DNA of 64,000 bases, from positions 13,134 through 77,133 of IMG/VR virus record IMGVR_UViG_3300022821_000011; one strand, given 5' to 3'. The DNA comes from a virus. Its lineage: Duplodnaviria; Heunggongvirae; Uroviricota; Caudoviricetes. The notes under the pieces were generated by a model, which had not been told where the DNA came from, made no database searches, and worked only from the letters and a program-made list of their open reading frames with translations. Every line of letters begins with the position of its first letter. Within the stretch, counting starts at the first letter, position 1. Below are positions 4,021 through 61,189 of this stretch, one piece after another. The position numbers were made by a program, and so were the translations under genes.

Positions 4021-4325
4021 TTTATTTCGATTTATTCGTTAGTTCCTTCAAGATAAGCCAAAAATTGATCTTTCCAGTCAAAATAATCATCAAATGACAT
4101 TGGAAACGAGGCATCTCCTCGAGATTTATTTTCTTCTATCCACATTTTTTCAAACGCGTCAACATTGTTTTGCAACTTAAGCATAAATTCTTTAAATTCC
4201 ATTATATTAATTCCTTCTCACTTTGATTTATTTGGTGGGCAGGGAAGCCGTGTAGTCACTTCCAGTCGGCAATCATTCCTCTCCGTTATACACTCGGAGC
4301 ATGCCCATAATATTTATCCTAAAAT

Positions 4326-6551: not shown

Positions 6552-7521
6552 TTCAAACTATTGAATATGAAAAGCGCCTGTTTCAGTTGATAGCCTATCG
6601 CAATAATCACTAGCAACTGCTAAAGAAGTAGAAGAAGCCAAAATAATAGCTGACATTATAATAATATTTTTCATTTGTTTCACTTTCATTTGTTTAATTT
6701 TCACTTGTTTAATTTTAATTAATCGACGAAATCGCTAAGATTTGCTTTCCAATTATCAATCTTTCCATATTCATTAATATTCATAATAACATAATCGCCA
6801 TATCCAGGCCCACCTGGTGACATAGAACTAATAACATATGAATCATCCAATCTTTTAACTGGTACATTAATATCATCAAGAAGAGTATATACGCCAGCAT
6901 CACACACTTTATAATGTATCTTAGCTGTTTTTCCAGCTTCCCAATTTGTAATAATACCAGTTTCCAAATCGATGGTAGGTTCCCAGCAATCATTACGCCG
7001 ACATGGAATAAGAGAACCGTCTGTATCTTCTACTCCATTTACTTTACCATCCTCCCAATATCTAACTCCACACGAAGCTTTAAGATATTTCACATCTTTA
7101 ACTACGGTTTCTGTTATTTCAATTTTCATTATCTACAATCCATTCTATAAGTTGTTGTTTAGCTTCTTTGGTCATTGTAAAATTTAAAAATTCAGTTTGA
7201 GAATCTAATCGAATGTATAACTCACCATCATCTTCTTTTTCAATACTAAAGTCTGTAGAACTTCTAGGTCCATATACTATAAATTCTTTTTTACTTTTAA
7301 TAATATCCATATAATCTCATTTCATGTATTTTCGATGATCCACTTTTTAAGTTCTGAAAGTTCTCTTGGAGACAAATCAATAAGTTCTTCAGAACCTCCA
7401 ATATTAATTGTAACAAGTAAATTACCATCGTCACACATAAATAATTCTAAATCATCTCGAATATGCTTTTTAATAATAATTCTTTTGTTATTTTTAATAA
7501 TATCCATTTTATTCTCCAAAT

Positions 7522-7598
7522 TGGCACAGGCACCGGGGATTGAACCCGAAATATCAGCTCCACAAACTGAGGTGTTACCACATTACACTATACCTGCC
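7522..7598 (-). tRNA. tRNA-His (GUG), with an extra 5' G (-1) encoded
   Basis: D-arm GTGT-AATGTGGTA-ACAC, anticodon stem TCAGT/GCTGA, loop TTGTGGA, T-arm TCGGG-TTCAATC-CCCGG, CCA encoded. Confidence 0.7.
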
Positions 7599-7617
7599 TG
7601 ATTGTCAATCATTAATT

Positions 7618-7711
7618 TGGTACTCCCACCAGGATTCGAACCTGGGACGCTCTCTAATCTGGAGACGATGCTGAATATAAGTCAGGTGTTTTACCGCTAA
7701 ACTATGGGAGT
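7618..7711 (-). tRNA. Type II tRNA with a long variable arm; apparent anticodon UAU from loop CTTATAT, so identity is unclear (Leu, Tyr or Ser class)
   Basis: Acceptor ACTCCCA/TGGGAGT plus ACCA, T-arm CCAGG-TTCGAAT-CCTGG, 94 nt. Confidence 0.6.
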
Positions 7712-11836: not shown

Positions 11837-13297
11837 TTAAACTGCAATATCGTATCGCTCATTCATAATTGTTTTAAGCATAATAGCTTCAGGTGTCATA
11901 TTCTCCATATCAGAGCTAAGCACTGACTTAACAATAGTTGGAGAGAAACCAGAAACCATAGCTATACCACGATCGTCAAATCTAACTGGCACATCTGATT
12001 TTGCATTAAGATTCCAGAATACAATACCCGGCATAATATATCCAGCCATTTCATACTTATGACGAATCATTTCTACAGCTGAATGATCTAGATTTGCACA
12101 TTGATCAAACTGCATATCTGACATGATCATAATAACATCTGGCATATCTTCTTGTGGTACACTATGAGCTACAGCAAGATTAAGAACTTTATCAAAAGCA
12201 GCATGAAGATTTGTATTCATTGCCCATTTTGAACGCTTCATTTGATCTACTTTCTGAAGAATATCACCTCTAAGAGTAAGCAATTCAGGAGAACCAGAGA
12301 AAGTAAGGAATGTGTCCTTATAAACTCCGGTATTCTTATCAGCCAAATACAGGCCAAGAGACACTGAAACATCAAGACAAGTAACAGATGATTTGCTAGT
12401 ATGCCCACCCGCTAGAGTCATCATTGATCCAGAAACATCTACCATTGGAAGAATCTTTGCATCTCCAACAAAATTTGGAAGAGCTTTCCACTGAGCAGCA
12501 ATATGACCCTTTTCAACATTTGTATATCTTTGGTCATTATATATACTAGCCAGACCCTTAAGAACATCATAAGGATATACTGCTCCAGCATTTACTTTAA
12601 CACTCTCATCACCAGAAGTTAGCTTCTCAACATATTCTTCAAAATTAACAGAGTGACGATTAAAAGCCTTCTTATATCTAGCTGAAGCAAGAGAAGGAAC
12701 TTTGCTATAATCAATAGCATCCCATTCATTTGCACACATAAGTGTTTCAACAACCTTTGTAAGTTCTACAAGACGCTTACGATAAAACTTTGGAGTCCAT
12801 CCAAAATACTTACGAAGACTAACTGCCTTAGGACCTTTTCGTGGCATCCACTTAGCGCAAAGACCATTTCCATCATCAAGAGCTTTCTTAATAAGATCAT
12901 AAGCATAAGCCTTAACTGGAATGCTTTCAAAATCTACAAGAAGATCATCCCAACGGCCAATTTCCGGAGTCTTATCAATAAGAGCTTTAGCCTGATCTTC
13001 TGGCAAAAACTTCAAAATGTCACGATATATCTGACGTTCACCGCTTCCTTCACGAGCATCTCGAACCCACTGAGCAATACGCAAAGCGTACTCAGGATTC
13101 TCCACATGAGCCGCTGTGAAATCCGGCTTGATATTCTTCCCACGAGAAGCTCCGATCTTGAAAAAAAGATCTACATTCTTATTTGCAGAAGTAACACGAG
13201 ACTTCATACCATTTTCGGTACGGGCTTCTTGTTCTTGAATTGAATCAATAAACTTATTCATTTTCATTTTCCTTTCATCTGGATAATTGACCACCAT
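11837..13297 (-). CDS. rsr: Ro60-like protein (TROVE-like N-terminal region plus a C-terminal vWA domain with MIDAS motif VDVSGSM). The likely true start is MKMNKF, near 13270
   Basis: MIDAS DxSxS in LPMVDVSGSMM; overall size and architecture match Ro60/Rsr; SD AAGGAAA upstream of the internal ATG. Confidence 0.55.
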   Translation of the reverse strand: MVVNYPDERKMKMNKFIDSIQEQEARTENGMKSRVTSANKNVDLFFKIGASRGKNIKPDFTAAHVENPEYALRIAQWVRDAREGSGERQIYRDILKFLPEDQAKALIDKTPEIGRWDDLLVDFESIPVKAYAYDLIKKALDDGNGLCAKWMPRKGPKAVSLRKYFGWTPKFYRKRLVELTKVVETLMCANEWDAIDYSKVPSLASARYKKAFNRHSVNFEEYVEKLTSGDESVKVNAGAVYPYDVLKGLASIYNDQRYTNVEKGHIAAQWKALPNFVGDAKILPMVDVSGSMMTLAGGHTSKSSVTCLDVSVSLGLYLADKNTGVYKDTFLTFSGSPELLTLRGDILQKVDQMKRSKWAMNTNLHAAFDKVLNLAVAHSVPQEDMPDVIMIMSDMQFDQCANLDHSAVEMIRHKYEMAGYIMPGIVFWNLNAKSDVPVRFDDRGIAMVSGFSPTIVKSVLSSDMENMTPEAIMLKTIMNERYDIAV

Positions 13298-13400
13298 TGG
13301 TCTTAATTACTCGCTAATGCGAATAATAGGAATCGAACCTATTATTATTTTTGCTGAATTTATCCTATTCTAAACATCAGGTTCAGTTTGCTTTTTTTGA
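13285..13400 (-). ncRNA. Circularly permuted tRNA-like module, candidate YrlA-type Y RNA number 2, in the 5' leader of the Ro60-like gene. Order is T-arm, acceptor stem closed by an ATTA loop, then D-arm
   Basis: Minus-strand order: T-arm ATAGG-TTCGATT-CCTAT, then TATTCGC, ATTA, GCGAGTA, then D-arm GACC-AATGGTG-GTC. There is no 5' acceptor partner in the normal position. Confidence 0.5.
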
Positions 13401-13589
13401 TTACAAGTCAAATGCTTTAAGCTTGCGGAAATGAACCTATTTTTATTTCAACAGATTAGTTATCTACTTCTTATTTAATGTGGAGAAATCGAAGACCACT
13501 GCCATGTTTTGATGGTTTGCTGCAACTAATCTAAATTCTAATTTTTATCTAACTACTACTAATTTTTACTTAAATATTCAACAGATTGA

Positions 13590-13710
13590 TATTTGCTACC
13601 TGCTCTACCAACTGAGCTACCTCTCCATAGAAAATGGTGGAGAGGGTTGGACTTGAACCAACGACCAGGGATTTTCAAGATCATGCTTTGATTGCTGTAA
13701 TCAATCTAAT
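13590..13710 (-). ncRNA. Circularly permuted tRNA-like module, candidate YrlA-type Y RNA number 1. Order is T-arm, acceptor 3' strand plus ACCA, an 8-nt loop, acceptor 5' strand, then D-arm
   Basis: Minus strand reads GTTGG-TTCAAGT-CCAAC CCTCTCC ACCA TTTTCTAT GGAGAGG TA GCTC-AGTTGGTA-GAGC. The flanks carry GATTGAT/ATCAATC complementarity. Confidence 0.5.
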
Positions 13711-13882
13711 TCTATTTACTCTATTTGTTTATACTGGATCATCTTGGTTTTTTTTTCAACAAAAAATAAATGATTGCGGAACTGATCCAAAACTCTATTG
13801 CGTTTGTATTCAACAGGATTAACTTTGCTTTTTTGAAATAAAAGTTTGTTTGATTGCTGTAATAATCCTAAATTATGTATAT

Positions 13883-13911
13883 ATTATATTCTATTCATAT
13901 ATTGATGTCAA
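13883..13911 (-). promoter_or_regulatory. Perfect consensus sigma70 promoter (TTGACA-17-TATAAT) directed at the Y-RNA-like modules and the Ro60-like gene
   Basis: Plus-strand tgtcaa at 13906-13911. The -10 on the minus strand is TATAAT, 17 nt downstream. Confidence 0.65.
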
Positions 13912-13928
13912 CAAGTATTTTTAATTTT

Positions 13929-14003: not shown

Positions 14004-14019
14004 TTAATAAGCAGGATGG

Positions 14020-14200
14020 TGAGAGAAACTACCAACTTCTCTCACCTCGACATCTTGCGGATGTTTAATATTACTTGCGGTAATATTCTAGGACGTCCAG
14101 ACGCCCTGAAGTTTTTTTTGTCGGATTACTTATAAATCCGAGGGAACATGCGTGCATAGCCCTAGTCCACGGCATAATTATTAACGACTAAATTATACAA
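14020..14200. ncRNA. GC-enriched structured non-coding segment upstream of tRNA-Ile. It includes a 10-bp hairpin GGTGAGAGAA...TTCTCTCACC (14023-14051) and the hairpin TCGGATT...AATCCGA. Possibly a small stable RNA
   Basis: No plausible ORF, local GC well above the genome background, several perfect stems. Confidence 0.35.
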
Positions 14201-17364: not shown

Positions 17365-18093
17365 ATGATTTTTCTCCTTATAAATAAAAATAAAAGGTTA
17401 ATTATGTATTATACTATATACAAAACTACAAATAATGTCAATAATAAAATTTATATTGGTATGCATCAAACCAAAAATTTAGATGATGGATATATGGGTT
17501 CAGGACTTCTTTTAACCAAATCTATAAAAAAATTTGGCAAAGAAAATTTTAATAAAGAAATTCTTCACGTTTTTGATAATGAAGAAGAAATGAATCTTAA
17601 AGAAAAAGAATTAGTAAATGAAGAATTTTGTAATTCTAATAATAATTATAATCTGTGTCCTGGAGGTAATGGTGGGGCTATTAGAAAAGGAGCAATTCTT
17701 ACACAAGAAACAAAAAATAAGATTTCAAAAAATACTAAAAAAGCAATGGAAAATAAAGAAATTCGTTTAAATCTATCGAACAAAAGAAAATCTCGAATTA
17801 CAAAAGACGAAACTAGAAAAAAAATGTCTGAAAGAGTTTCTAATACAACTTGGATATATCATTATAAATCAAAACAGTCTAAAATGATTCAACAACACGA
17901 AAAAGAAAAATATTTAAATTCTAATAAATGGTTTTTGGGTCGTGGTTTTAAAGCAAAAGGAACACCTAAAAAAGTAATGCTTTATAACATTGAATATTCT
18001 TCATTAAAAGAAGCAGCAAAAGATGTAAACAAAAGTGATACTTGGGTTAGAAATCAAATTAATAATCCAAATATTATTGCAGAATATATCTAA
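17365..18093 (+). CDS. GIY-YIG homing endonuclease (Seg-like), plus-strand, embedded in the tRNA array
   Basis: YTIYKTTN...IYIGMHQT...DGYMGSG GIY-YIG core. This is one of the very few plus-strand genes and is analogous to T4 segB in the tRNA cluster. Confidence 0.7.
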
Positions 18094-18111
18094 TTATATT
18101 CTTCTATTAAA

Positions 18112-18187
18112 TGGTGCTCCTAAAAGGATTCGAACCTCTGACGCGTAAATCTTCAATCTACCGCTCTACCAACTGAGCTATAGAAGC
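18112..18187 (-). tRNA. tRNA-Phe (GAA)
   Basis: Acceptor GCTTCTA/TAGGAGC, D-arm TAGCTCAGTTGGTAGAGC, loop TTGAAGA. Confidence 0.8.
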
Positions 18188-18223
18188 ATTATAAAATATG
18201 TTAACTCAAACGTCAACAAAAAA

Positions 18224-18297
18224 TGGATCCCCCGGCTGGACTCGAACCAACATATTAAGCACCAAAAACTTGCGTCCTACCATTAGACGACAGGGGA
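18224..18297 (-). tRNA. tRNA-Gln (UUG)
   Basis: D-arm GTCT-AATGGTA-GGAC, loop TTTTGGT, T-arm GTTGG-TTCGAGT-CCAGC, CCA encoded. Confidence 0.65.
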
Positions 18298-18666
18298 ATA
18301 ATTATCCTGTACCATTTGTTTTTAAATCCCATATTGTATTTGACATAATATTTCTTAAACTAGTAATATCATGCAAATTAATATTATTAACATCTGACCA
18401 ACCTGGTAATATAGAAATAAAAGTAGTTCCGTTTTTTCTATGTTTCTTGTGAAACTAACCACATCGTCGCCTCCACACTATATAAAACATCAAGTTGTTT
18501 TTTATTAAGTGACTTAATCGTATTAAAATTAGCAGAAGTAAAAGAATAAAAAGAATAATATTTATCACTATGTTTTACATTCTTAATAAATTGTATTTGT
18601 TTATCAATATTATCATTAAAAGTATAATGAGCGCTAACAAACAAACTGTGTAATTGTTTCATATTT

Positions 18667-18741
18667 TGGATCTTCCATGTGGATTCGAACCACAACTATT
18701 TGAGTCAGAGTCAAAGGTTCTACCAATTAAACTACAGAAGA
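18667..18741 (-). tRNA. tRNA-Gln (CUG)
   Basis: Anticodon stem TTTGA/TCAAA, loop CTCTGAC, T-arm GTGG-TTCGAAT-CCAC, CCA encoded. Confidence 0.7.
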
Positions 18742-18742
18742 A

Positions 18743-19078
18743 TTATTCTACTAACGTGATTTTTACTTCACATAGTCCATCACAACCAATTTTCTTAGCA
18801 GCCGCTTCTGATAAATCTATAGATCTACCTTTTATAAAAGGACCTCTGTCATTAATTCTTACAATAACAGATTTTCCTTTAAATATAACTTTTATAAAAG
18901 TTCCAAAGGGTAATATTTTATGAGCTGCTGTATAAGCATTCTTATTAAATATTTCTCCATTAGCGGTAAGCTTACCATGAAATCCTGGACCATACCAAGA
19001 AGCAATAACAACTTTAGGCTTAGATAAAGAAACAGTTGTAAAAACAATCAAAAATAATATTGGTAAAATTAATCTCAT
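18743..19078 (-). CDS. RlpA-like double-psi beta-barrel (DPBB) protein with a signal peptide; a putative peptidoglycan-binding or lytic accessory protein
   Basis: [17 protein letters not shown]...INDRGPF...[12 protein letters not shown] matches the RlpA/DPBB family. Confidence 0.7.
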
Positions 19079-20111
19079 TTAAAACCTACAAAAATTTAAA
19101 TGGTGGAACTTTTCTTTTAACACTATGCTTTTTCATATATATCTTATATTCTTTTAGCTTTTTTTCATATAGCTTTATATTTTCATCATATTCATCAAGT
19201 TTATCTTTAATATAGATTTCAGCATGTTTTTCAGAATCAAACAATATATCTGAAACAAAATTTTTAGTATAATCAGAAACCTTAAACCACATACAAAAAA
19301 ATCCATAATTATATTCAATATTATATTTATTATAAGCAGTTTGATCATTTACAATTCTATATGATCGCTTGGTTGGCTTATACGGCTTTATTAATTTATT
19401 TGAACTCATAATTCTTTTATTATCCATTCTTCTTTGATTTCAAGTTCTAGACATATATATTCATCTGAATATTCATCATATTTAAATCGATAACCCCAGC
19501 GTTCTCCATCATTATCTCCTTCATCTGAAGAAAAACAAATATCGCCAACACATTTGTTTTCAATCAAAATGTCAATTGTTTCTGGAATGCTACTTAAAAA
19601 ATCCATATGTTCATTTGCGTCACTATCAAATTCAATAGTTTTTCTGTCAATATCATATGCAATAAAATGACCTTCTTTATTTACAACCTTATCAATTTTA
19701 TCAAAAACTTCTAATGACACTTTTACTGTATTCTTAACACAATTTATAGTCCACATAATCTATTCCTTTATATGCGATGAAATTATACTTTTTAAATGAT
19801 GATACAATGCAGTAGTTCCACTATGAAGATCATGATGCTTTTCTATATCATCGCAAAGATCATTTAATAAACACTCAGAAGTAAAGTTCAAATTTTTCCA
19901 ATTTGGAATTGGTGTATTATTGTCCATTAAATCGCTACTTTTCTTTTAAGTCGAACATCACCTTCATCCATATAATCATCACCAGCATATTCTGAAAAAG
20001 TTTTATATAGTTCATTCCAAACTACATCAATTTCACAAACAGTCATTTCTATATAAGTATGATCTGATGCTGGTACTAAAATAGTTTCTTTCATAATATA
20101 TTTCCTTTTAG

Positions 20112-20201
20112 TGGAGGAAGGAGCGGGATTCGAACCCGCGGAACCTTGCGGTTCGTCTGCTTTCAAAACAGAAGCCTTAAGCCAGACTCGGCCACCCTTC
20201 C
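20112..20201 (-). tRNA. tRNA-Ser (UGA), type II
   Basis: TGGCCGAGT...GG D-arm, anticodon stem TCTGT/GCAGA, loop TTTGAAA, variable hairpin GAAC-CGCAAG-GTTC. Confidence 0.8.
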
Positions 20202-20982
20202 AATATTATTTTACATTTAATTTTTCGAAAAGAAGTTTCCATTTTTCTTCTGGAGTTTCTGTTACAATAGCATTTACAATTTCAACTAATGTATCATGAT
20301 ATTTTTCTGGATGTCGAAAATAAAAACTTGCATATGTGCTATCAAACGAATCATCTTCATCATAATGATATAGAGGATGATCTCTCATTGCTTCGAAAAC
20401 TTCTTCATAAGCTTCTCTGTTTCCACCACCACATCTAGTATAAACAACAAGATGATCTTCTGTCAAATAAGCATCTCTAAATCTTCCAAAATCTACTGAT
20501 GTTAATTCTAAAACACCTAAAACCAATGGAGAAATTGCATTAACTCCAAATGTCATATTATATAAACTCATTTTATTAATCCAATGTCGTTGTAGTTTTT
20601 TTAAGTCTTATGTGAGAAACAGTCCAATTATTACTTTCAATAGTTTGTTTTATATCATTTTCAAATTCTTCAACTTCTTTATCATTTTTACAATTAAAAT
20701 TTCCAGAAAATTCATCCCCAGAGTCTTCAATAGTAACAATGAATGTATATGAGTCTGCCATAATATATCATCCTTAATAAATAAGAGACGTATCAGTTAT
20801 ACGTTCCATTAAATCAAATATAGCCCACGCTTGACAACCCAAACACATTGCTTCATGGCGATCACATCGATCACCATATATTTCTGTTAAAACTCTAGCC
20901 TGTTTATTAAGAGCTTCTTCTCTTAGGTTTCTAAGTTTCTTTTTTTTTCATTTTATATCCTTAATCGCTCATAAAGCATTTA

Positions 20983-21046
20983 GGAAGTCCTTGAAAGTCA
21001 TAGTTTTATCCATTTGGAACTATTAATACTTTCAAGGACCTCAATG
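20983..21046. repeat. Conserved hairpin element, copy 4
   Basis: GGAAGTCCTTGAAAGT...ACTTTCAAGGACCTCAATG. Confidence 0.75.
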
Positions 21047-21120
21047 TTGCGCCAGGTGGAATTGAACCAGCCGATTTCCGGATAATGAGTCCAGCGAGAT
21101 GACCTCTTCTCTACAGCGCG
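21047..21120 (-). tRNA. tRNA-like with anticodon CAU, a C1:A72 mismatch and T37 (initiator-like or degenerate)
   Basis: U8A9 present, D-arm GAGA-AGAGGTCA-TCTC, anticodon stem CTGGA/TCCGG, loop CTCATTA, T-loop TTCAATT. Confidence 0.45.
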
Positions 21121-21731
21121 TTACTTTTTTCTTTTTTAAGATAATCTTTTACATAATAATTTAATATTTCATCTGTGTTATGAATAGGTTTATGTGTTTT
21201 TTCAAAAGCTTTTTCTATTTTTCTTAATTTTAGAATTGTAGAACGTTTTGGCCTACCTGCTAATACTTTTTTAATAGACGATATTTCAAACACCGGATCT
21301 TTTGTTGAAGCATAAGCATATGGATAATTTCCAGTCCATATTTTAAAAGAACCAATATATAAATGCTCATATGAAGACTTACTATAAAAAATCAAATCAT
21401 TTTCTGCTGCTTTTATAAAAAAATCATCTAAAAGAGAATTATATTTATTATTCATTGACCAAAATCGTGGCGAACAAAGCTTTATTCTATCAAAAAATGT
21501 AAGTGGTTCAAATTGCATTATTTTTCCTCACGATGTTTAAAATCTCTTTTGAAGATATAATTTCACATTTATTTTCAATTTCACTAATTCTTTTCTTTGG
21601 TATATCATAATGATCTTTATGAAACCAACATTTTTTTATATTCAAATCAATAGCCATTTTATGAAGATTTTCTATTGAATATGGTATACAAACTAAATGT
21701 CTTTTTTTATCTGTATAATATTTCATTATGC

Positions 21732-21760
21732 ATTATATAATATGTTTTTTAGAATGTCAA
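21732..21760 (-). promoter_or_regulatory. Perfect sigma70 promoter TTGACA-17-TATAAT for ORF 21508..21726
   Basis: Plus-strand tgtcaa at 21755-21760. Confidence 0.6.
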
Positions 21761-21770
21761 CTAATAAATG

Positions 21771-21880
21771 ACCATTGCTAGATTCGAACTAACATTTTCC
21801 CATTCCTGGGATGCAATAACCACGGGTTCATATCTTCTACTGTCCGTGCACTCGATTATCATCAAAGCAGAACCGCCTTA
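21771..21880 (-). tRNA. tRNA-like fragment or pseudogene. The T-arm GTTAG-TTCGAAT-CTAGC and acceptor 3' strand are present, with no matching 5' acceptor
   Basis: Only the 3' half is recognisable. Confidence 0.3.
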
Positions 21881-22007
21881 TACTATCTGGTCATAATAAA
21901 TTATTATCTTTATAGTCTTTACTGAGACGTTCCCTTCTCGCTATTATACTATAAGTTATATTTTGTTCGAATTTGCCATATAACCAGCACCTCGAGATAA
22001 TAATAAT

Positions 22008-22084
22008 TGGTCTGTGTAGAGAGATTTGAACTCCCGACCCTTCACTCCCAAAGCGAATGCTCTACCAAGCTGAGCTACACACAG
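22008..22084 (-). tRNA. tRNA-Pro (UGG)
   Basis: D-arm TAGCTCAGCTTGGTAGAGC, anticodon stem TTCGC/GTGAA, loop TTTGGGA, T-arm GGGAG-TTCAAAT-CTCTC, CCA encoded. Confidence 0.8.
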
Positions 22085-22281
22085 TTAATTTGTTTTATTG
22101 ATATGAGGATTACCATTTTCATCAAAAACAATATTTGATGTAACTTCATACATTAAATCATAAAGTTTTTCTACTTCATCTTCTGTTAATTCAGGATATT
22201 GTTCTGTAATTTCATTTTTCTGATAACCATTGTGAAGATAATAATTAATTTGCTTTACCATAATATACAATTCCTTAAATT

Positions 22282-22388
22282 GGCGTCGGGCGGGGTATCG
22301 AACCTGAAGAACCGTGCCTATGCAGGCCTGCATTGTCTTCATTTTTTCCATTCGTCTTAGAGTCATGACTCCCTTCGACAGCGCCATG
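22282..22388 (-). ncRNA. Atypical GC-rich tRNA-like element of about 105 nt. It has a T-loop-like TTCGATA and palindromic arms, and overlaps the N-terminus of ORF 22085..22387
   Basis: Acceptor-like pairing GGCGCTG/CGACGCC; palindromes GAGTCATGACTC and ATGCAGGCCTGCAT; no canonical cloverleaf. Confidence 0.3.
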
Positions 22389-22765
22389 CCATACCCAACA
22401 TAATTTATCTAATACATAATTTATCTAATTCTAAATCTTCTCTACAATACAAATAATGCTTTTTTACTAAATTGAATTCTGGATGTTTTGATATCCACAT
22501 TCCAGTGTGTGGATCAAATTTATTCTTAAAAAAGTTATCTAATATAATAACTCTTTTTCTTCTTTCGTTATCATAATAATCTTCTAATGTTTCCATATCT
22601 TTATCTATTCTTAAAGATAATGAATCATATTCTTCATCTGTTATCATTGAATAAGATTCATATTCATATGAATATGCAGAAATAGATAAAATAATTCTAT
22701 TTCTTCTTTCTATGCTTCTTTGAATTGTAAAAAGATCTGACATTTATAATCTTTCTTATTTGATT

Positions 22766-22840
22766 TGGCACCGACTCTAGGATTCGAACCCAGACCTGAT
22801 GGCTTTGGAGACCATTGTACTGCCGTTATACTAAGTCGAT
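22766..22840 (-). tRNA. tRNA-Trp (CCA)
   Basis: Anticodon stem ATGGT/GCCAT, loop CTCCAAA, T-arm CTGGG-TTCGAAT-CCTAG, CCA encoded. Confidence 0.75.
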
Positions 22841-23678
22841 ATCTTTTGTTTGTAACGACAAGATAAAAGAAAATATAATTTCTCCAATATCTTCAATTAA
22901 ATCTATTTCATATTTTGAAGGAACTTTATCATAAAAATAATAATTCATTAAATCAATAGACGTATGCCTTTTCATTTTTTAATCTTCCCAATCATAATTT
23001 ATAACTTCAATAATCATATAATCTGGAGAACTGTGTTGATAGTTGCTGTTAATTTTTTTATCATACTCCAACAAATCTGTTTTAATAGCTTCATAAGCTT
23101 CTTCACGACTAGAATATCCACGATATTCGTCAAAAGTATTTTCTAAAGCTCCACCACCATATTCAATCAAACTCTTAGGAGTTTTTATCAAGCCATCTGA
23201 TGATATTTCTTTAATACAATATCTTTTATTCAATACATAAGTCATAATAAAATCCTAATCTAGAAATTCAAGTTCTTCTATTTCATAAGAAGTGTTTCCA
23301 TCGCCTATAGTTTTTCCAGCTAACATGTCCTTTATTTCGGAATCGCTAAAGCTATGATTCTTGACTTCTTCAAAAGATTTTTTTGTTGGAAAAGTTTTCC
23401 AAAAGGCAACTAAATCGGACTCACAATAATCAACCATATATCTTAAACCATAAAATTTTTTCATAATAACTTCCTTTTAATATAATCCCAGGGCGGGCAC
23501 TCACAATCTATATTACGTATTCACTTGTGTTCTAGCCGGGTACTACCGTGTTGCAACTTAGTCATTCCCTCACATCGCGTTGATGCTGCCTTGAGATTAA
23601 TTGGCTCTTAGGGCGATCATACGATCAACATCTTCTTCCTACGCTGGAAGCTGTTTTTACTTAAACTACCTAAAACTT

Positions 23679-23762
23679 TGGTGGGAAGATGCGGTTTCGA
23701 TCCACTCCCTATAAGGACGAGTTTTACAGACTCGATGCTAAAGCCATTAGCTTTATCTTCCC
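23679..23762 (-). tRNA. tRNA-Tyr (GUA), type II, with an odd T-loop ATCGAAA
   Basis: Acceptor GGGAAGA/TCTTCCC plus ACCA, anticodon stem CGAGT/ACTCG, loop CTGTAAA, variable hairpin TCC-TTATA-GGA. Confidence 0.6.
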
Positions 23763-23766
23763 AAAT

Positions 23767-23843
23767 TGGCTCCCAGCCCCGGTAACGATCCGGGCAGTGT
23801 CTGATTAACAGTCAGATGCGTTCACCATGCTCGCCCGCTGGAA
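23767..23843 (-). tRNA. tRNA-Asn (GUU)
   Basis: Acceptor TTCCAGC/GCTGGGA plus GCCA, anticodon stem TCTGA/TCAGA, loop CTGTTAA, T-arm CCCGG-ATCGTTA-CCGGG. Confidence 0.6.
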
Positions 23844-23980
23844 ATAATAAGTAGGATGCGAGTGGATTTGAACCAGAGAACCCTAACTCTCTTTTACTCG
23901 GTTGGAAATTTAGGGAAAAATCCAACATACCCACACCTGGGCATCCATAAATTCTGTATTAGTATAACACTATTTATCGT
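23844..23980 (-). ncRNA. Unassigned structured GC-rich RNA segment with a 6-bp hairpin GTTGGA...TCCAAC and a T-loop-like GGTTCAAATCC. It lies downstream of a TTGACA promoter at 23984-23989
   Basis: No ORF, high GC and multiple stems. It could not be folded into a canonical tRNA. Confidence 0.3.
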
Positions 23981-24095
23981 GTGTGTCAACAACAAAAATT
24001 ATTTTTCTATGCCGAAACCACTTGTACGATGCATTCGCATCCACGTACTGGACATATGCTGTCTTTATGCTTAGGAGACAGCCTCCTGTTAAATC

Positions 24096-24171
24096 TGGTA
24101 CCCACGAAGGGAATCGAACCCTTTTCTGAAGTGTGAAAAACTTCTATCCTAGCCAAGTAGACGACGTGGAC
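24096..24171 (-). tRNA. tRNA-Glu (UUC)
   Basis: Anticodon stem GAAGT/ACTTC, loop TTTTCAC, T-arm AAGGG-TTCGATT-CCCTT, CCA encoded. Confidence 0.7.
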
Positions 24172-24212
24172 ATAAAAAAACCCCGGCATTTCTACCGAGG
24201 GTTTTATATACA
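24172..24212. terminator. Hairpin flanked by an A-run and a T-run (AAAAAAACCCC...GGGTTTT), a bidirectional terminator-like structure
   Basis: Read directly; it separates the tRNA block from the next unit. Confidence 0.45.
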
Positions 24213-24397
24213 ATAAACTTATATAGCCTTAGTTTACTCTATACAACACCCTCAATTCCTGACACACGAAAATTATTCGAACTAAACGACCAATCGAGAA
24301 TATACATTTCTGTATGTTCCGGTTGTATATCGGTTAATGGATATGTTTTTATGCTAGTCATGTGAAAATTTGAGTTCCTTGTTTAAATTATTTATAT

Positions 24398-24426
24398 ATT
24401 ATATATATGATTTTATGCATTGTCAA
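24398..24426 (-). promoter_or_regulatory. Perfect sigma70 promoter TTGACA-17-TATAAT
   Basis: Plus-strand tgtcaa at 24421-24426; drives a small unlisted ORF (24240..24361). Confidence 0.6.
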
Positions 24427-25322
24427 CAACTATTTTTAAAAAATTATCTTCTAGATGGATTATCATTATCTAAAATTCTTATTATACGATCTAATCTTTT
24501 TTCAATACCTATAAGTTTTTCTTTACTTCTTTCGACATCTATTTTTTGTTTAGTTATTTCTTGTCTATAAAAGTCCTGTGTATTTTTAATAGATTGCAAT
24601 TTTTCATCTATTTTTTTCATTGGTTCAGCAATTTCTTGCTTTACTAATCTTTCAGTTTCTGCCTTAGCATAATATGAAATACTAGTAGATGCTGCCGTTA
24701 CAATCATTAATATAAGAGCAATGGTTTCCCAATAATTTTTTAACCAAACAGAAACTGCAGAAAAATACATAAGAATCTCCAAAAAGAATAGTGTTATATT
24801 GTATTTATTCTTTTTGGAAATTTAACTCTATCACGTTATCTTTTTTTGATTGTTCTATATTTTTATTTTTCTGAGTTGATATGGCTTTTTTATATTTAAC
24901 ATTTTCTTTATTAGATATTACAAATTGTGAAGAATCATTATCCCAAAATAAGCCATGAGTATCTCCAGCATCTTTAAGATAATTAGATGCTTCAGATAAA
25001 ATAGGATAAAAAATAGAATATTCTCCGGCAACCCAGGGTTCTACAACTTTATATAAAAAAGGATGAGTTTTCATATGATTGGCAGCACCTCCAGCATGAA
25101 CATATTTTCTTTTTGGATCTTCATCTTTCGCAGTTTTTTCTAAAAAGAAAAATAGATAAGATTCTATTCTTTCTGTATCTTTGGTTGCTATATAAGATAT
25201 ATCAGTTCTGCCAAGATATATCCAATCTTCTAAAGATACTCCTAACATTTTTCCAGTTTCAGATTCACGAACTTCAACTGAAAAAATATTAGAAAATATG
25301 TTTTTTACGCTTTTAAACATAA

Positions 25323-25859
25323 TTATTCTGTTTTAGCTCTTACTTCAAGTCTTGGAGTATCAATAACTAAAGGCAAAGAAGATACAAAAAACGCCATTTG
25401 ACCACCAACTTCAATTTTAGCGCCTGATGATGCATCAAAGAAATACCATTTATCACACCCAGCACCGCCATAATAAACACCATCAAGGGCTGGAGCAGGT
25501 CCTAATGGAGGATGACCTGATGAGCCACTTCTAGGATATGGCCTAACCGGAGGAGTAAGAGAAGTACAAATATTCACAGGAGCACTATCTGCTACATAAT
25601 ATCCAACATAACCAACACCAGGAAGCATCACATAAACATAATGTGTCTGATCTGGTTCATTTGCAGCTTCAACCCAACGAACAATACTTTTACGCGTAGT
25701 AAACTGCCTTACCTGAGGAACAGGAAGACTTTTAACAGCATTTTTCATATTTTGTTCTTGAATTCTAGTTCCAGTTCTAGTAGAGCTTTCTTCATAATTG
25801 CATCCCACCAAAAGCAAAGCTCCTAAAGAAAGAGCAGCTATAGTTTTAAAATTAATCAT
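25323..25859 (-). CDS. Lipoprotein (signal peptide plus lipobox LLVGC)
   Basis: N-terminus MINFKTIAALSLGALLLVGCNYE. Confidence 0.6.
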   Translation of the reverse strand: MINFKTIAALSLGALLLVGCNYEESSTRTGTRIQEQNMKNAVKSLPVPQVRQFTTRKSIVRWVEAANEPDQTHYVYVMLPGVGYVGYYVADSAPVNICTSLTPPVRPYPRSGSSGHPPLGPAPALDGVYYGGAGCDKWYFFDASSGAKIEVGGQMAFFVSSLPLVIDTPRLEVRAKTE

Positions 25860-27540
25860 ATTATAAATTCCTTGTTAACAATTTGTTTTTGAACCATTGT
25901 ATGTATCTAACATTATATTTCGAGGCAAATTAGAATCTTTAAATCTACCAGATGTATATGCTTTGTTAGAATCAGCATTATATTCTGCTATCTTAGAAGC
26001 TCGCTGAGAAGCTAAACCGGCCACATTAGTAAGAACCATCCTCTTCATATCATCAGTGAGTTCTTGAGCCAAAAGAGATTTTTGCTCATCAATTTTAAAT
26101 TCAACAGCTTTAATTGATGCGCACAAATTATGAAAATGGTCATATGTATATCTACGATTTGCTCCAGATTCAATTTGGACTTCTGCATTTACAGCTCCTC
26201 TAAATGGAGCTAGTAAATAAGTAAGCCCACCAGATATTCCAGTAATAAGCAAAAATAAACAGATGATGCAAACAATAGCAAAAGCGGTCCAGCCAAACAT
26301 TTTTAGCATTATAATTCCTTTCAATTATTAAAATTAATTTTTTTCTAAATATAATGGAGTTATATCTAAATCGATTCCATTCTTAAAATAAGAAGTTTTC
26401 TTATAAGATGATTCTGCTATCTTTTTAGAAGAATATATCTTTTTCGTACGGTGATTGCCGTATCGATCTCCAGTAGTTACTGCTTTACCAAATTCATCAG
26501 TTAAAGCATATCCAATAATATGTAATTCTTTTTTAATCATAATATAACCCTTAAATAAATTTAGACCAACCTTCTTTTCTCATTTCGTCTTTTAATTTTT
26601 CCAACTTATTATCAGTATATTTATTTAAGAAATATAGTGAAACAGCCATAGACAATATAAAACAAACAAAAAATAATGTCATAGCAACCCAAAAAATTGC
26701 ATGAAACAAAGCACTAATATATACAACTCCAAGAGAAATAACAAAAGACAAAATAAAACTATATGGAGACCAATCAATTAACTTTATTTTCTTTTTTGTA
26801 TATTCAAGACTAAACTCGCAAGAAATACCAGAATGAGAATTTAATATCAAAACGCACAACTCTTCTCGATTTGGTATATGGCCATCTGCAACATTATGAA
26901 TTAAATCAAGAACAGCATCGCCGGTCCAAGATTCAGCTTCTGACAATTCTTCTTTAAGAGTTTTATCGGCCACTTACTGAATCCTCCAATGGACACATTA
27001 TAGGAATACCGTTATCATCTTTATCAAAACTATTGATATTACATCCTAATAGCTCACAAAACTTTTCTGGTTTAGCGTGCATAACAAGCTCTCTATCCAT
27101 ATGAGGACATTCATCACATGATGTTATATAAACTATTGCTTTTTTCATTGTTGGTGTTCCCTGTAAGCTTCGCAACCTTCACAAATAATATATGGAAAAG
27201 AAACATGGTATTGACCACAACTCTCACACATATTTTCATTATGATATTCTTCTTTTAATTTTAAAATATCATATATCATATCACCTGGATATAAAGCTTT
27301 AAGATATTTCTTACCTTTTGGTGTAAGAGAAGCTTTATATGATGTTAGATTTTTTGATCTTCTTATCAGCTTATGCTCTACCAAAATTGTAAACATAGTA
27401 TGTCCAGTAGTATATCCAAAAGCATATTTTGTAACACCTTCATCAATAACTTGTCTAGGAGACACACTTCCAAAATTAGCATTTGCATGAACTTTTTCAA
27501 CTTCAAAATCTGATATAATATCTTCTGGAAGTGTTACATG

Positions 27541-27633
27541 CTTCATTTATTTCTTCTCTTCAAACGAGCCCGCCGTTTTTTAGATCCAATCTTTCTTCGA
27601 CCTTTTCTTGGTCTATTTTTATGCGGATGTGCC
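27541..27633 (-). CDS. Small, highly basic 30-aa peptide (MAHPHKNRPRKGRRKIGSKKRRARLKRRNK); unlisted because it is under 60 aa
   Basis: ATG at 27633, read in the minus frame. Confidence 0.3.
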
Positions 27634-28060
27634 ATCAATTAATCACTTTCCACTCTGTAACAGAATCCTTACGAAAACTTCTCCATGCACTTTTATCCAA
27701 ATCCCAAACATTCATAACATTTGGCGAAGTTGTATTTCCACCAACCGGATGACTCTCGACAGGAATATTATCCATATTAAGAGTACACTTCATAATTCTA
27801 TCGGAACCGTCTTTTTTAACAAATGAAACGGTAACATTACCCAATTCAAGGGCCTTTTCAAACTTTTCAATATCAAACATAGTATATCCTTTCACTATTT
27901 TATTATAATATATCACAAAAAAGAGATATTGTAAATAGGCTATTTAATTATTTTTCTATACGAGGAAAAATAACAAATTTCAAAATCAAAAAACCAATAA
28001 TATATCCAACAATAAAACCAATTGTAGATTTCACAGTCGGTATTGCTAAAATTTCTAACA

Positions 28061-29398
28061 TTATAGCTTAGCCCTTTCTCTAACTTCTTCAAATGTGGTT
28101 TCATTATACATATAACCATGTGAATATCTTTTCTTAAAAGAGCTATTTGTAATAAGACCAGCCTTAGATGCTTTTGAGCGATCTGTGATTGGATCTTTCT
28201 TTACATCAAACCAAACAACACCATTATACGATGCAGAACTAGTTTTCATTGCAAAGCTTAGATCATCTCTATTTACTTTTTGAAGCAAACCACCGCCCAT
28301 ACCAAAGGCCCAATTTTCTACACTAATTCCTCTATCTATAAGCTCTTTCACACATTCACGAATAGTATCAATATTGCATCCATCGCCCTGAATCGCACGA
28401 ACGCAGTCTTCAAAAACGATAAAACCTTTATTGTTAACAGTATAATTATCAAACGATTTAAGAATTCTTTCAGAAACCTGGCCAATCATCGATGAAATTG
28501 GACTGCCACTATCTGGTCTAATCACAAGAGTTCCACCAGAATTACGAACTTTTTCTTTCAACTTATTACCCCACCCTTCGGTGATTGCTTCCCAGATGTT
28601 ATAACTATCTGATACGCAAGAATAAAGAGCGTTGGTTTTTGCATAAGTATCTAAAAAATGTTCAAACATTTCATATTCACGGTCCTTGCCCCAACAAGTT
28701 ACAGTCGAATGCTCACTAGCAGGAATAGAAAAACCAGCCATATCTTCACCATAATATACTTTGGCAGCTTCTAAAGCTTCGACTGTATCGGTTCCCATAA
28801 AGTTAATCAAATGAGCCATGCCGCCCAATGCAGCTGATTCGCCAGAAGTCGCTCCCCTACCGCCAAAGTCATGTAACTTAAACGCGATCTGGCCATCTGG
28901 ATCATCGCACGATTCTTGCAAACCAGCATATATAATCTTTTTTACTTCACGTGACACAGTCGCTACAGTTGATGGATACCATATTGCTCTATGGAGCGCA
29001 GTTTCAATAAAGGCTGGAAGCCATGGAAACCTATCATCTGCGTTTCTTACTTCTAGAAGAGGTGTTCCCAATGGAACTACGGTGCCTTCGTCGATAGCAG
29101 AAATTTGAATAGGAAGAAAACCATCAAACTCATTAACGATTATGTCCCATCCTTCTCTATCAAAAGGAAGGCCATGAGCAGTAATTCTCTTTTCTGCATA
29201 ATCAATATCTTCTTTTACAATTGGATCTAATAGATATTCTTTTAGATATGATTGCAGGCCAAAGTAAACCATAGAATCAAACTTATTTGATTTTCTTCCT
29301 TCGAGATATGAACTCATATACTTGATATTAGGATCAATAAGTTTTGAATGAGAAAATTTGTAACTGTCTGTAGATAAAATAAAATTTCTTTTTAGCAC
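28061..29398 (-). CDS. nadV: Nicotinamide phosphoribosyltransferase (NadV/Nampt)
   Basis: MLKRNFILSTDSYKFSHSKL... NAPRTase family; 445 aa. Confidence 0.8.
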   Translation of the reverse strand: MLKRNFILSTDSYKFSHSKLIDPNIKYMSSYLEGRKSNKFDSMVYFGLQSYLKEYLLDPIVKEDIDYAEKRITAHGLPFDREGWDIIVNEFDGFLPIQISAIDEGTVVPLGTPLLEVRNADDRFPWLPAFIETALHRAIWYPSTVATVSREVKKIIYAGLQESCDDPDGQIAFKLHDFGGRGATSGESAALGGMAHLINFMGTDTVEALEAAKVYYGEDMAGFSIPASEHSTVTCWGKDREYEMFEHFLDTYAKTNALYSCVSDSYNIWEAITEGWGNKLKEKVRNSGGTLVIRPDSGSPISSMIGQVSERILKSFDNYTVNNKGFIVFEDCVRAIQGDGCNIDTIRECVKELIDRGISVENWAFGMGGGLLQKVNRDDLSFAMKTSSASYNGVVWFDVKKDPITDRSKASKAGLITNSSFKKRYSHGYMYNETTFEEVRERAKL

Positions 29399-29731
29399 TG
29401 TAATAACTCCTATTACGTTTATGTTTAAATTTTTACCACCACCAATGAATTAAAACATCTCCAGTGATACTGCATTTTTTAAAATAATCAGAAATAATTG
29501 GATATTCTTCAGACAATTCTGCCTCATCCCAACTAAAATAATAATAATCATTTCCAAGTTCATGATCTTGCCATAATCTTTTAACTTCTTCTTCAACTTC
29601 TACTGGACAATCCGTCCACTGAGCATCAAAAACAAGTTTTGCACTAAATGCAGATGGTATATTACTACTATCTACTTCCTGCCATTTGTTAGTTTTATGT
29701 ACGTGGGCAGTAGTTCTTCCTGAATATTTTA

Positions 29732-30811
29732 TCATAATTTCACCATATCATCTATTATATCAAAGTGATCTTCAAAAATAACACCTCTATCGAGATCATT
29801 AAGAGGAATCCATTTCGCTTTTGCAGCATCATCAGAACCTTTTACTTTTGGAAGTTCTTGCATATCCGTCAAATGAATATAATGAGCATGCGTTATAGTT
29901 CTTCCACGCTGAGATCTATATGGATCATCATACACTTTAACTTGTTTAATTGATCCACGAAGAACGGCCGCAGGAACTTTAATTTTTGTTTCTTCTCTTA
30001 GCTCTCTAATCATAGCATCTTCAATAGTTTCAAATTGATTGATGAAACCACCAGGGATTGCTAATTGACCAAGACCAGGCATCGCGCCGCGTTCAATCAT
30101 AAGAATATGACCAGATTGAACCACTACTGCATCTACAGTATTAAAAGTTGGAGGGAACGGTGAATGAGACCAACTTTTCTTATATGAAATCAAATGCTCA
30201 TTTTCAGCTCTTATATATTCAAAGTCTTTTGGGTTTTCTTCAGCCCAGCTTTCAAGATATTCAACTACTGCTATTGGCATCTCAGCAGCTCTTCTTGGAA
30301 ACATAAGAGTCCAAGGATTAAACAAATCTTCTCTAACAGTTGTAGCATCAAGAACTACATATTGTTCAACATTTTCACTTCCCCATTGAGGAAATAAATT
30401 AAGATAAAAAGATGAATGATCTTTTGCGTGACCAATCAATCCAATTTTTGTGGGTCCGGCTTTCCATTTTTTATTAATGATATGATTGACTTGACCTTGA
30501 ATACTAGAAACCCACTTATCTAAATTATAAGTATAATCTTCTTGATATGCAAAATCTATAGCAGAACTATAAGCAGCAACACGATCAAATAAATCAGTGC
30601 CTCTAGTTATTTCCATCATAGAATCAAGAATCATTTGTTTTCTTTCTTGACTAGTCCAAGGGTTACGTAATGATCTAGGCTGGTTGTGCGAGCCCAATAC
30701 TATAATAATTTTTTCGGAAAGTTCTAGTGCTCTTCTGATAACATTTAAATGTCCATTGTGCACTGGCTGAAATCGGCCTATAAAGACCAGATAATCGTAT
30801 TTGTATGACAT
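29732..30811 (-). CDS. nadM: Bifunctional NMN adenylyltransferase (NadM-type) plus Nudix ADP-ribose pyrophosphatase
   Basis: FIGRFQPVHNGHL nucleotidyltransferase motif and Nudix box IRELREETKIKV. A T4-late-like TATAAATA sits 38 nt upstream, with SD AAGGGAG. Confidence 0.8.
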   Translation of the reverse strand: MSYKYDYLVFIGRFQPVHNGHLNVIRRALELSEKIIIVLGSHNQPRSLRNPWTSQERKQMILDSMMEITRGTDLFDRVAAYSSAIDFAYQEDYTYNLDKWVSSIQGQVNHIINKKWKAGPTKIGLIGHAKDHSSFYLNLFPQWGSENVEQYVVLDATTVREDLFNPWTLMFPRRAAEMPIAVVEYLESWAEENPKDFEYIRAENEHLISYKKSWSHSPFPPTFNTVDAVVVQSGHILMIERGAMPGLGQLAIPGGFINQFETIEDAMIRELREETKIKVPAAVLRGSIKQVKVYDDPYRSQRGRTITHAHYIHLTDMQELPKVKGSDDAAKAKWIPLNDLDRGVIFEDHFDIIDDMVKL

Positions 30812-61113: not shown

Positions 61114-61189
61114 TGGAAGCCACGCAGGGAATCGAACCCTAAGCATCGGGATTGAAAGCCCTAGCCAACCCTGTTGTTAAGACGCGGCC
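61114..61189 (-). tRNA. tRNA-like. Canonical T-arm TAGGG-TTCGATT-CCCTG plus CCA; possible anticodon UUC; the D-arm and acceptor are degenerate (the 5' region forms the hairpin GTTAAG...CTTAAC instead)
   Basis: Loop CTTTCAA; weak acceptor pairing. Confidence 0.35.

Follow-up and report, generated by a model that had tools for sequence, protein, structure and literature searches.

Positions 23,470 to 24,095 of the DNA analyzed here, a 64,000-nucleotide (nt) stretch of the virus record IMGVR_UViG_3300022821_000011 (Caudoviricetes) referred to as the window, form a GC-rich island in an AT-rich phage genome. The analysis indicates that this island is probably an early operon for transfer RNAs (tRNAs) and stable RNAs, in which two atypical, genuine tRNAs, tRNA-Asn and tRNA-Tyr, are flanked by two non-decoding tRNA mimics. 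The mimics are designated B, which lies nearest the promoter, and A1, a cloverleaf that ends in CCA; the remaining segments are designated A2 and C (Table 1). Every feature of the island reads on the minus strand.

An earlier reading of the sequence, the original prediction, had described the tract as GC-rich and non-coding, and both descriptions hold. GC content in 200-nt windows over 23400-24199 is 0.38-0.475, compared with 0.22-0.33 in the flanks. For the window as a whole it is 0.313 in coding DNA, 0.489 in annotated RNA genes and 0.293 in other non-coding DNA; the segments A1, A2, B and C have values of 0.405, 0.470, 0.444 and 0.406, respectively. Stop codons occur in all three frames of the minus (gene) strand. 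The longest open reading frames (ORFs) in the island are one of 72 amino acids (aa) on the plus strand, antisense to B, the promoter and C, and one of 68 aa that starts with TTG and overlaps tRNA-Glu. Neither has a match in PHROG. A hidden ORF was considered and rejected, given the stops in all frames and the lack of PHROG matches.

The two tRNA genes that the original prediction had recognized by manual folding are both real. Each forms a clean cloverleaf, as the minimum free energy (MFE) structure and as the centroid, in which the acceptor has 7 bp, the anticodon stem 5 bp and the anticodon loop 7 nt including U33; the T stem has 5 bp, or 4 bp plus A.A in tRNA-Tyr. The usual T-loop consensus T54-Psi55-C56-R57-A58 (GGTTCGAATCC) is absent from both, as had been noticed; AUCGUUA in tRNA-Asn and AUCGAAA in tRNA-Tyr replace UUCGAAU. 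The Rfam tRNA model, RF00005, matches neither gene at E ≤ 10, even on a 371-nt slice. ARAGORN calls tRNA-Asn, and misses tRNA-Tyr at its default setting, recovering it in mitochondrial mode (-mt). Calls made at lower thresholds (-ps50; -mt -ps70) were discarded, as overlapping calls tile the region. The identity elements defined in E. coli are GUU and G73 for Asn and, for bacterial Tyr, GUA, A73, G1:C72 and a long variable arm. All of these are present. tRNA-Asn has U1:A72, G73, an encoded CCA and the D loop AGCAUGGUGA; tRNA-Tyr has the long variable arm, G1:C72, A73 and an encoded CCA.

Both genes belong to families that are widespread in phages and largely absent from annotation. Acinetobacter T4-like phages, reached through a weak blastn match, carry a homologous tRNA-Asn gene, which in their records is either unannotated or lies under a coding sequence (CDS) labeled 'hypothetical protein' (e.g. 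KARL-1, LemonAid). In Acinetobacter phage LemonAid (OR608380.1; positions 1560-1664 of fetched locus L008) such a CDS is annotated directly over the tRNA-Asn and is probably a mis-annotation. These genes are of the A54 type, with the T-loop sequence GGATCGNNACC and the T arm GGAUCGNNACC. A family pattern derived from the window and an Acinetobacter phage, consisting of the GAGCAUGGUG D loop, the GACUGUUAAUC anticodon arm and the GGAUCGUUACC T arm at fixed spacing, is present in the window's tRNA-Asn and was found at 50 loci in IMG/VR, with nhmmer E values of 1e-9 to 2e-3 (1e-9 for tRNA-Asn against loci L047 and L061). The family genes occupy tRNA arrays with tRNA spacing. Among 26 distinct sequences there is no variation in the GUU anticodon, U1:A72, G73, the D loop AGCAUGGUG or the T loop AUCGUUA, and compensatory changes occur at pairs 4-6 of the acceptor, 2-3 of the anticodon stem and 1-3 of the T stem, as well as in the D stem. 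The window's tRNA-Asn shares all of the invariant features. It differs from the family in its 3-bp D stem, in a fully paired 7:66 where the main family has G.A or G.G, and in its T stem, CCCGG/CCGGG as opposed to CUGGG/CCCAG. Default ARAGORN detects only 2 of 52 Asn family genes, and the Rfam tRNA model misses both of the loci tested.

A similar family exists for tRNA-Tyr, with 15 loci in IMG/VR, 13 of which are 79-84% identical to the window gene; a Cellulophaga phage also carries a homologue. The family has the class-II variable arm, G1:C72, A73 and GUA, with compensatory changes in the acceptor and anticodon stems. The T arm GGAUCGUAACC, with the T loop AUCGUAA, is found in 13 of the 15 loci, and the other two, of the Cellulophaga type, have the canonical UUCGAUU. 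The window's tRNA-Tyr has the D arm, class-II variable arm, A73 and GGAUCG T arm of the family, and differs in having A58 (AUCGAAA) where those 13 loci have U58. ARAGORN missed all 15 loci, and Rfam missed all four that were tested. Nor is the A54-type T arm rare: of the 818 distinct tRNAs that ARAGORN called in the fetched phage loci, 60 have it, across 15 isotypes. Judged by their cloverleaves and by the compensatory stem changes in their families, tRNA-Asn and tRNA-Tyr are real tRNAs, divergent members of under-annotated phage tRNA lineages and not oddities specific to this genome.

A1 begins immediately after tRNA-Tyr and has the overall architecture of a tRNA. Its acceptor (UUUUAGG/CCUAAGA) is paired at 7 of 7 positions and is followed by a discriminator G and CCA, and three further helices (GUUU/AAAC, 4 bp; CUUCC/GGAAG, 5 bp; UGAUC/GAUCG, 5 bp) complete a four-helix cloverleaf of 21 perfect base pairs. 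Two of the hairpins named in the original prediction, CTTCC-AGCGTA-GGAAG and GATCGTATGATC, are arms of this cloverleaf. The loops AAGUAA, AGCGUA and GUAU have 6, 6 and 4 nt, so that neither the 7-nt anticodon loop of a tRNA, with its U33, nor the 7-nt T loop is present. The T-like stem does not join the acceptor directly, as one extra C (23613) lies between them. With neither of the two loops, A1 cannot decode codons and is not classed as a tRNA. Like A1, 23 of the 27 window tRNAs tabulated (the 26 called by ARAGORN plus the manually folded tRNA-Tyr) encode their CCA.

The A1 cloverleaf is very unlikely to be accidental. The whole window was screened for a 7/7 acceptor followed by NCCA in a sequence with a cloverleaf as MFE structure. 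On the gene strand there were 17 matches: 14 annotated tRNAs, A1 and two overlapping matches within coding sequence near 56.1-56.2 kb. The plus strand of the window gave none. Only 3 of 4000 dinucleotide shuffles of the A region passed the same screen (p ~7.5e-4), and 1.36 Mb of other phage DNA, screened on both strands, yielded ~5 apparent chance matches.

B has neither an anticodon loop nor an encoded CCA, and its resemblance to tRNA lies at its ends. The closure GGAUGC/GCAUCC forms six Watson-Crick pairs and is acceptor-like. The T-loop motif GGUUCAAAUCC stands in the canonical tRNA register, 5 + 7 nt before the discriminator (GGUUCAAAUCC-ACU-CGCAUCC-U), on a 3' strand to which the 5' end of B is paired. 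Over its last 23 nt, B is 91% identical to the T arm and acceptor of a phage tRNA-Cys. The minus strand of the window has 24 copies of the motif GGTTCRANNCC and the plus strand none; 19 of the 24 lie in annotated tRNAs or the transfer-messenger RNA (tmRNA), and the other five, including that of B, lie in unannotated tRNA-like elements. Departures from tRNA are a T stem paired at 3 of 5 positions, C.C at 7:66 and internal loops of 4, 14 and 8 nt. The interior hairpins are not those of a tRNA: CCA-GGUG-UGG; GUUGGA/UCCAAC with a 14-nt loop, which is the GTTGGA...TCCAAC hairpin of the original prediction and forms the center of B; and AGAGA/UCUCU, whose loop has 8 nt. A 6-nt complementarity (CCCUAA/UUAGGG) exists between the two larger loops, for which a rough estimate of chance occurrence is ~0.007. 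The branched fold, with a free energy of -24.2 kcal/mol excluding any bonus for loop-loop pairing, competes with a rod-like MFE structure. B is tRNA-derived, as far as its motif and closure indicate, and lies directly behind a strong promoter. Two other identities were considered and rejected. A 6-bp stem with a 4-nt loop resembles the D arm of tRNA-Sec, but it overlaps the acceptor and there is no UCA, and a search for an intron-bearing tRNA (ARAGORN -i) returned only nonsense calls.

The TTGACA promoter of the original prediction (23984-23989) is a real match to the sigma-70 consensus, with the correction that it reads on the minus strand, toward B, tRNA-Asn, tRNA-Tyr and the A segments. This promoter, P2, consists of a -35 box (TTGACA, 23989-23984), a 17-nt spacer and an extended -10 box (TG-TATACT, 23966-23961), and its predicted start lies ~7-11 nt ahead of B. 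A second promoter farther upstream (24426-24398) is perfect, matching at 12 of 12 positions, and has the GTTGTTGACA context in common with P2; a promoter near 13920 has a shorter TTGTTGACA context. The order in the direction of transcription is promoter 24426-24398, a 40-aa ORF, a hairpin resembling an intrinsic terminator, tRNA-Glu, C, P2, B, tRNA-Asn, tRNA-Tyr, A1, A2 and a 69-aa ORF. The hairpin ends the upstream unit of promoter and 40-aa ORF and directly precedes tRNA-Glu, which forms the upstream border of the island. Spacing beyond P2 is tight, with 9 nt between B and tRNA-Asn, 4 nt between tRNA-Asn and tRNA-Tyr and 3 nt between tRNA-Tyr and A1.

Table 1. Features of the island and its borders, in the direction of transcription (window coordinates).
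Feature	Position	Strand	Description
Terminator-like hairpin	24181..24200	-	8-bp stem with 5 GC pairs, then TTTTTTT (U7)
Canonical tRNA-Glu(UUC)	24096..24171	-	CCA encoded; called by ARAGORN; Rfam RF00005, 49.8 bits
C, predicted tRNA-Glu trailer	23990..24095	-	Outside both segments earlier described as structured
Sigma-70-type promoter P2	23961..23989	-	Consensus matched at 11/12 positions
B, 94-nt tRNA-like RNA	23853..23946	-	T-loop motif, acceptor-like closure; first element past P2
tRNA-Asn(GUU), phage A54 type	23767..23843	-	ARAGORN; cloverleaf MFE; family in IMG/VR
tRNA-Tyr(GUA), bacterial class II	23679..23762	-	ARAGORN -mt; cloverleaf MFE = centroid, z = -2.83
A1, 74-nt tRNA-like cloverleaf	23602..23675	-	MFE = centroid; starts 3 nt past tRNA-Tyr
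A2, 117 nt, 47% GC	23485..23601	-	Between A1 and the ribosome-binding site of the 69-aa ORF
69-aa ORF	23464-23255	-	Shine-Dalgarno + ATG at 23476-23462

The original prediction had also proposed structured segments that might be degenerate tRNAs or small RNAs comparable to RNAs C and D of phage T4. That proposal survives for A1, with its significant cloverleaf and CCA end, and for B, with its strand-specific T-loop motif and acceptor-like closure; A2 and the promoter region fold like shuffled sequence. A2 has a four-way junction as MFE structure, yet its z-score is 0.04 and 98 of 200 shuffles are equally stable. A2 is probably the 5' leader of the messenger RNA (mRNA) of the 69-aa ORF. An identity as 5S-like RNA was rejected: the one short 5S-like motif is in the wrong position and there is no Rfam match. 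C contains the hairpins GCUGUCU...AGACAGC and GUACG-UG-GAUGC-GAAU-GCAUC-CGUAC, with a fold z-score of -0.65 and 44 of 200 shuffles equally stable, and an A/T-rich tract (24010-23990) that abuts the -35 box and resembles an UP element. We infer that C comprises the tRNA-Glu trailer and a UP-like part of the promoter. Neither A2 nor C has a tRNA-like motif, and the structure of both is within chance expectation.

The source genome, that of a myovirus known from metagenomes only, is called T4-like because its family-B DNA polymerase is 48% identical to gp43, all of its genes lie on a single strand and it has 26 tRNAs and a tmRNA. The best match of the polymerase is a cyanomyovirus gp43, at ≤48% identity. 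Other encoded proteins are DnaB, ClpB, NAMPT and NMNAT-Nudix. The 26 tRNAs and the tmRNA, which is permuted, are ARAGORN calls in the window and lie without exception on the minus strand; a group I intron was identified with Rfam.

Relatives of the unassigned segments were not found in any of the searches made. The Rfam scan that had been proposed as a check on these segments gave no match to A1, A2, B or C at E ≤ 10. In INPHARED, blastn with the island found nothing at 1e-5 and, at E ≤ 5, matches to the Asn and Tyr parts only. Exact patterns from B and from tRNA-Tyr had no match in IMG/VR. In the DNA on either side of the 50 Asn and 15 Tyr loci, neither blastn nor nhmmer revealed a homologue of A1, A2, B or C; all 744 kb of fetched DNA were likewise negative in nhmmer searches with A1, A2, B and the non-promoter part of C (24095-23990). 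A pattern spanning the Asn-Tyr junction had no match in JGI metagenomes, a collection that does not contain the source phage. A 19-mer from A2 matched one contig among GTDB genomes, where about one match is expected by chance; that contig has nothing else in common with window positions 18000-30000, and the flank of the match reads as coding sequence. The proteins flanking the island are orphans, the 69-aa ORF having no match and a 171-aa ORF matching only itself. Four metagenome contigs of the source phage are 100% identical over 1190 nt (872 nt in the shorter L004). In the nearest relatives, L005, L006 and L080 (NAMPT 73% identical), the tRNA region is rearranged and lacks the A1, A2, B and C segments.

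Taken as a tRNA and stable-RNA operon, the island would be transcribed from the host-type sigma-70 promoter P2 into a single precursor comprising a short leader, B, tRNA-Asn, tRNA-Tyr, A1, A2 and the mRNA of the 69-aa ORF and later genes. tRNA-Asn and tRNA-Tyr would be working decoders from phage-specific lineages in which A54 replaces T54. B and A1 would be tRNA-derived, non-decoding modules retaining features that tRNA-processing enzymes see, namely the acceptor helix, CCA end and cloverleaf topology in A1 and the acceptor helix and T loop in B. Host ribonuclease (RNase) P and 3'-end enzymes may excise B and A1 along with the tRNAs, and the excised RNAs may accumulate as small stable RNAs in the manner of T4 RNAs C and D. 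Excision would also part the tRNA block from the downstream mRNA. The GC content of 40-47%, in an intergenic background of 29%, argues against free decay of these segments.

Several observations weigh against this interpretation. The MFE structure of B is rod-like (-27.9 kcal/mol), is more stable than the branched fold by 3.7 kcal/mol and buries the T loop, and B has mismatches in its T stem and at 7:66. The loop sizes of A1 (6, 6, 4) resemble those of the few chance cloverleaves from other phage DNA. Fold z-scores are unremarkable (B, -1.75; A1, -1.57), although the true tRNA-Asn and tRNA-Glu score worse still. Every recovered copy of the source phage is 100% identical, and no search returned a homologue of A1, A2, B or C. 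What the sequence shows is the anatomy of the island, the promoter match, the family membership of the tRNAs and the statistical significance of A1 and of the T-loop motif of B; that B and A1 are transcribed, processed and stable, and that they have any function, is inferred.

In the main rival explanation, B and A1 are tRNA pseudogenes undergoing decay, A2 and C are residual spacer, and only tRNA-Asn and tRNA-Tyr are functional. In its favor are the lack of homologues, the three consecutive mismatches at the acceptor/T-stem junction of B, the insertions that replace its D and anticodon arms, and the absence of canonical anticodon and T loops from A1. The rearranged tRNA regions of the related L005 and L006 suggest rapid turnover as well. 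However, A1 keeps all 21 base pairs and the GCCA end while its loops are shortened, which fits selection on helices better than random decay; GC content is still 40-47% compared with 29% in intergenic DNA; and a near-consensus promoter stands directly ahead of B. On balance the pseudogene explanation is rather unlikely.

It is improbable that A1 and A2 together form a cis-acting structured 5' leader (a riboswitch, thermosensor or stabilizer) that controls the operon of the 69-aa ORF. The A1-A2 stretch does lie directly upstream of the Shine-Dalgarno sequence and ATG at 23476-23462, its GC content is elevated, and the MFE structure of A2 is a closed four-way junction. Yet there is no Rfam family at E ≤ 10, A2 has a z-score of 0.04, no conserved counterpart was found, and the CCA end of A1 and its tRNA spacing past tRNA-Tyr favor tRNA-type processing. 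That the island instead hides a small protein gene or a known class of RNA (a Y RNA for a phage Ro-like protein, a piece of tmRNA or an intron) might be supposed from the genome, which has YrlA-like RNAs (40 bits) beside a DUF2828/DUF7788 gene, a permuted tmRNA and a group I intron. The stops in all frames and the lack of PHROG matches argue against a gene, and in 23300-24300 there is no YrlA, tmRNA or intron match at E ≤ 10; the motifs that frame three Y-like modules at 13.5-13.9 kb are, by eye, absent from the island. This last explanation is highly improbable.

The closest parallel to the proposed operon is the tRNA region of T4, in which the order is tRNA-Arg, rnaD, rnaC. T4 rnaC corresponds to species 1 (139 nt) and rnaD to species 2 (119 nt). 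Like these RNAs, B and A1 are non-coding, fall in the range of ~75-140 nt and lie directly past a tRNA on the same strand with tRNA-like spacing, in a T4-like tRNA region. In rnaC a canonical T arm stands close to the 3' end and CCA is not encoded, which is comparable to B, and the annotated end of rnaD (...GCGCACC) is extended by an A in the genome to ACCA, comparable to the GCCA of A1. The RNAs differ in size and predicted fold, A1 being a four-arm cloverleaf and neither T4 RNA being so by MFE, and expression and stability have been demonstrated for the T4 RNAs only. Nhmmer found no match of rnaC or rnaD in the window, nor of A1, A2, B or C in the T4 locus, at E ≤ 10. Given the lack of sequence similarity, the likeness is an analogy and not membership in a family. 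The function of rnaC and rnaD is still unknown (PMC3014915).

Non-decoding tRNA mimics serve as processing signals in other systems, namely mitochondrial tRNA punctuation, mascRNA and viral tRNA-like structures (TLS), and YrlA has a tRNA-like domain. What B and A1 have in common with these is a helix of the acceptor type, accompanied or not by a T arm, through which RNase P, RNase Z or the CCA-adding enzyme can be recruited and which has no anticodon function. B and A1 differ in having no Rfam mascRNA, TLS or YrlA match at E ≤ 10, and their processing is a prediction. The Y RNA/YrlA family (RF02553), in which a Ro-binding helix frames a tRNA-like module, has no match within 23300-24300 at that threshold. 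Other phages among the fetched loci have long unannotated tRNA-like RNAs as well, and the theme therefore recurs.

A conserved RNA of ~110 nt lies directly past the A54-type tRNA-Tyr in L063 (~1240-1355), L064, L066 and L068-L072. Its three hairpins carry compensatory changes (CCAGC/GCUGG vs CCGUC/GACAGG; GUAAGC/GCUUAC vs AUAGGC/GCCUAU; GCAGG/CCUGC vs ACAGG/CCUGU), and it has no Rfam match. It was considered as a relative of the A segments and rejected, as a GAGGGAA heptamer is shared (L063, L064, L068) without nhmmer similarity. Non-canonical tRNA-Arg-like genes missed by ARAGORN occur in L063 (1911-2004), L066 (915-1008), L005/L006 (~12920-12995) and L009 (1387-1483); one family of these has 94 nt, an ACG anticodon loop (CUACGAA) and extra arms. 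Acinetobacter phage KARL-1 has a tRNA with a UCU anticodon in which a helix enclosing the anticodon arm takes the place of the D arm.

The window holds further unannotated elements, all on the minus strand. The element E21 (21765-21900) is a tRNA-like RNA of ~125 nt (fold z = -1.8) with a 7-bp terminal stem, AUGACCA/UGGUCAU, and the T arm GUUAG-UUCGAAU-CUAGC. Its 25-nt core TGATAATCGAGTGCACGGACAGTAG is identical in L005 and L006 (~7520-7620), where it also stands ahead of a T arm; E21 has no Rfam match, and the core is limited in IMG/VR to those two loci. The neighboring region 21508-21726 has 72-77% blastn matches to 460-640-kb 'huge phage' and Acinetobacter phages, which reflect a conserved 72-aa DUF4031 ORF and not an RNA. 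GGTTCRANNCC is found in three more unannotated elements: E22 (22291-22392), which has ~100 nt and a GCCA end; 61114-61186, which has a 7-bp acceptor, U73-CCA and the 8-nt loop CUUUCAAU and might be a reader of UCA or UUC; and 13318-13426, a weak tRNA match with an insert. Among the annotated tRNAs, tRNA-Ile(UAU) (7618-7711) has 94 nt and a long, class-II-like extra arm, and CCA is not encoded in four (Ser-GCU, Asp and two Met), three of which then share ATTGA.

Three tandem Y-RNA-like modules occupy window positions 13480-13900 on the minus strand, directly upstream of the gene for a 486-aa DUF2828/DUF7788 protein (ORF 11837-13297, minus strand). Each module is framed by ...UUACAGCAAUCA... and ...AAUCUGUUGAAUA..., and the middle one (13572-13694) encloses a permuted tRNA-like domain, with a YrlA score in Rfam of 40.1 bits (E = 2e-5), which falls short of the gathering score, 69. 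No PDB entry matches the protein in sequence. Modules and protein together may constitute a phage module of the Ro/Y-RNA type. GC-rich (42-49%) non-coding gaps adjoin tRNA genes at 859-932, 3884-3944, 4203-4313 and 14004-14161 and contain strong hairpins, e.g. GGGGGAGA...UCUCCCCC; the gap at 14.0-14.17 kb folds with -52 kcal/mol. These gaps may be further unannotated RNA elements or processing signals.

A broader and rather doubtful proposal is that A1, B, E21, E22 and the element 61186-61114 belong to one class of tRNA mimics that the phage makes, that do not decode and that have their own function. They might act as decoys or sponges, capturing host enzymes or toxins with affinity for the acceptor, T arm or CCA end of tRNAs, or as dedicated processing punctuation within mixed tRNA-mRNA transcripts. 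If such a class exists, A1 would be a minimal cloverleaf selected for its helices and CCA end and not for decoding.

Finally, the island has implications for how phage tRNA regions are read. Whole lineages of A54-type tRNAs, represented by 50 Asn and 15 Tyr loci, have gone undetected; default ARAGORN picks up very few, and none of the A54-type genes tested, the two in the window and six other loci, was matched by the Rfam tRNA model. As these tRNAs escape detection, phage tRNA repertoires, and the arguments about codon usage and anti-defense derived from them, are undercounted. GC-rich gaps within AT-rich phage tRNA regions offer a cheap and reliable marker for such genes. Non-decoding tRNA-like RNAs of T4-type tRNA clusters have posed a question of function since T4 RNAs C and D were described, and A1, which is compact and CCA-ended with intact helices and truncated loops, provides a clean, small substrate for studies of processing, CCA addition and binding partners.

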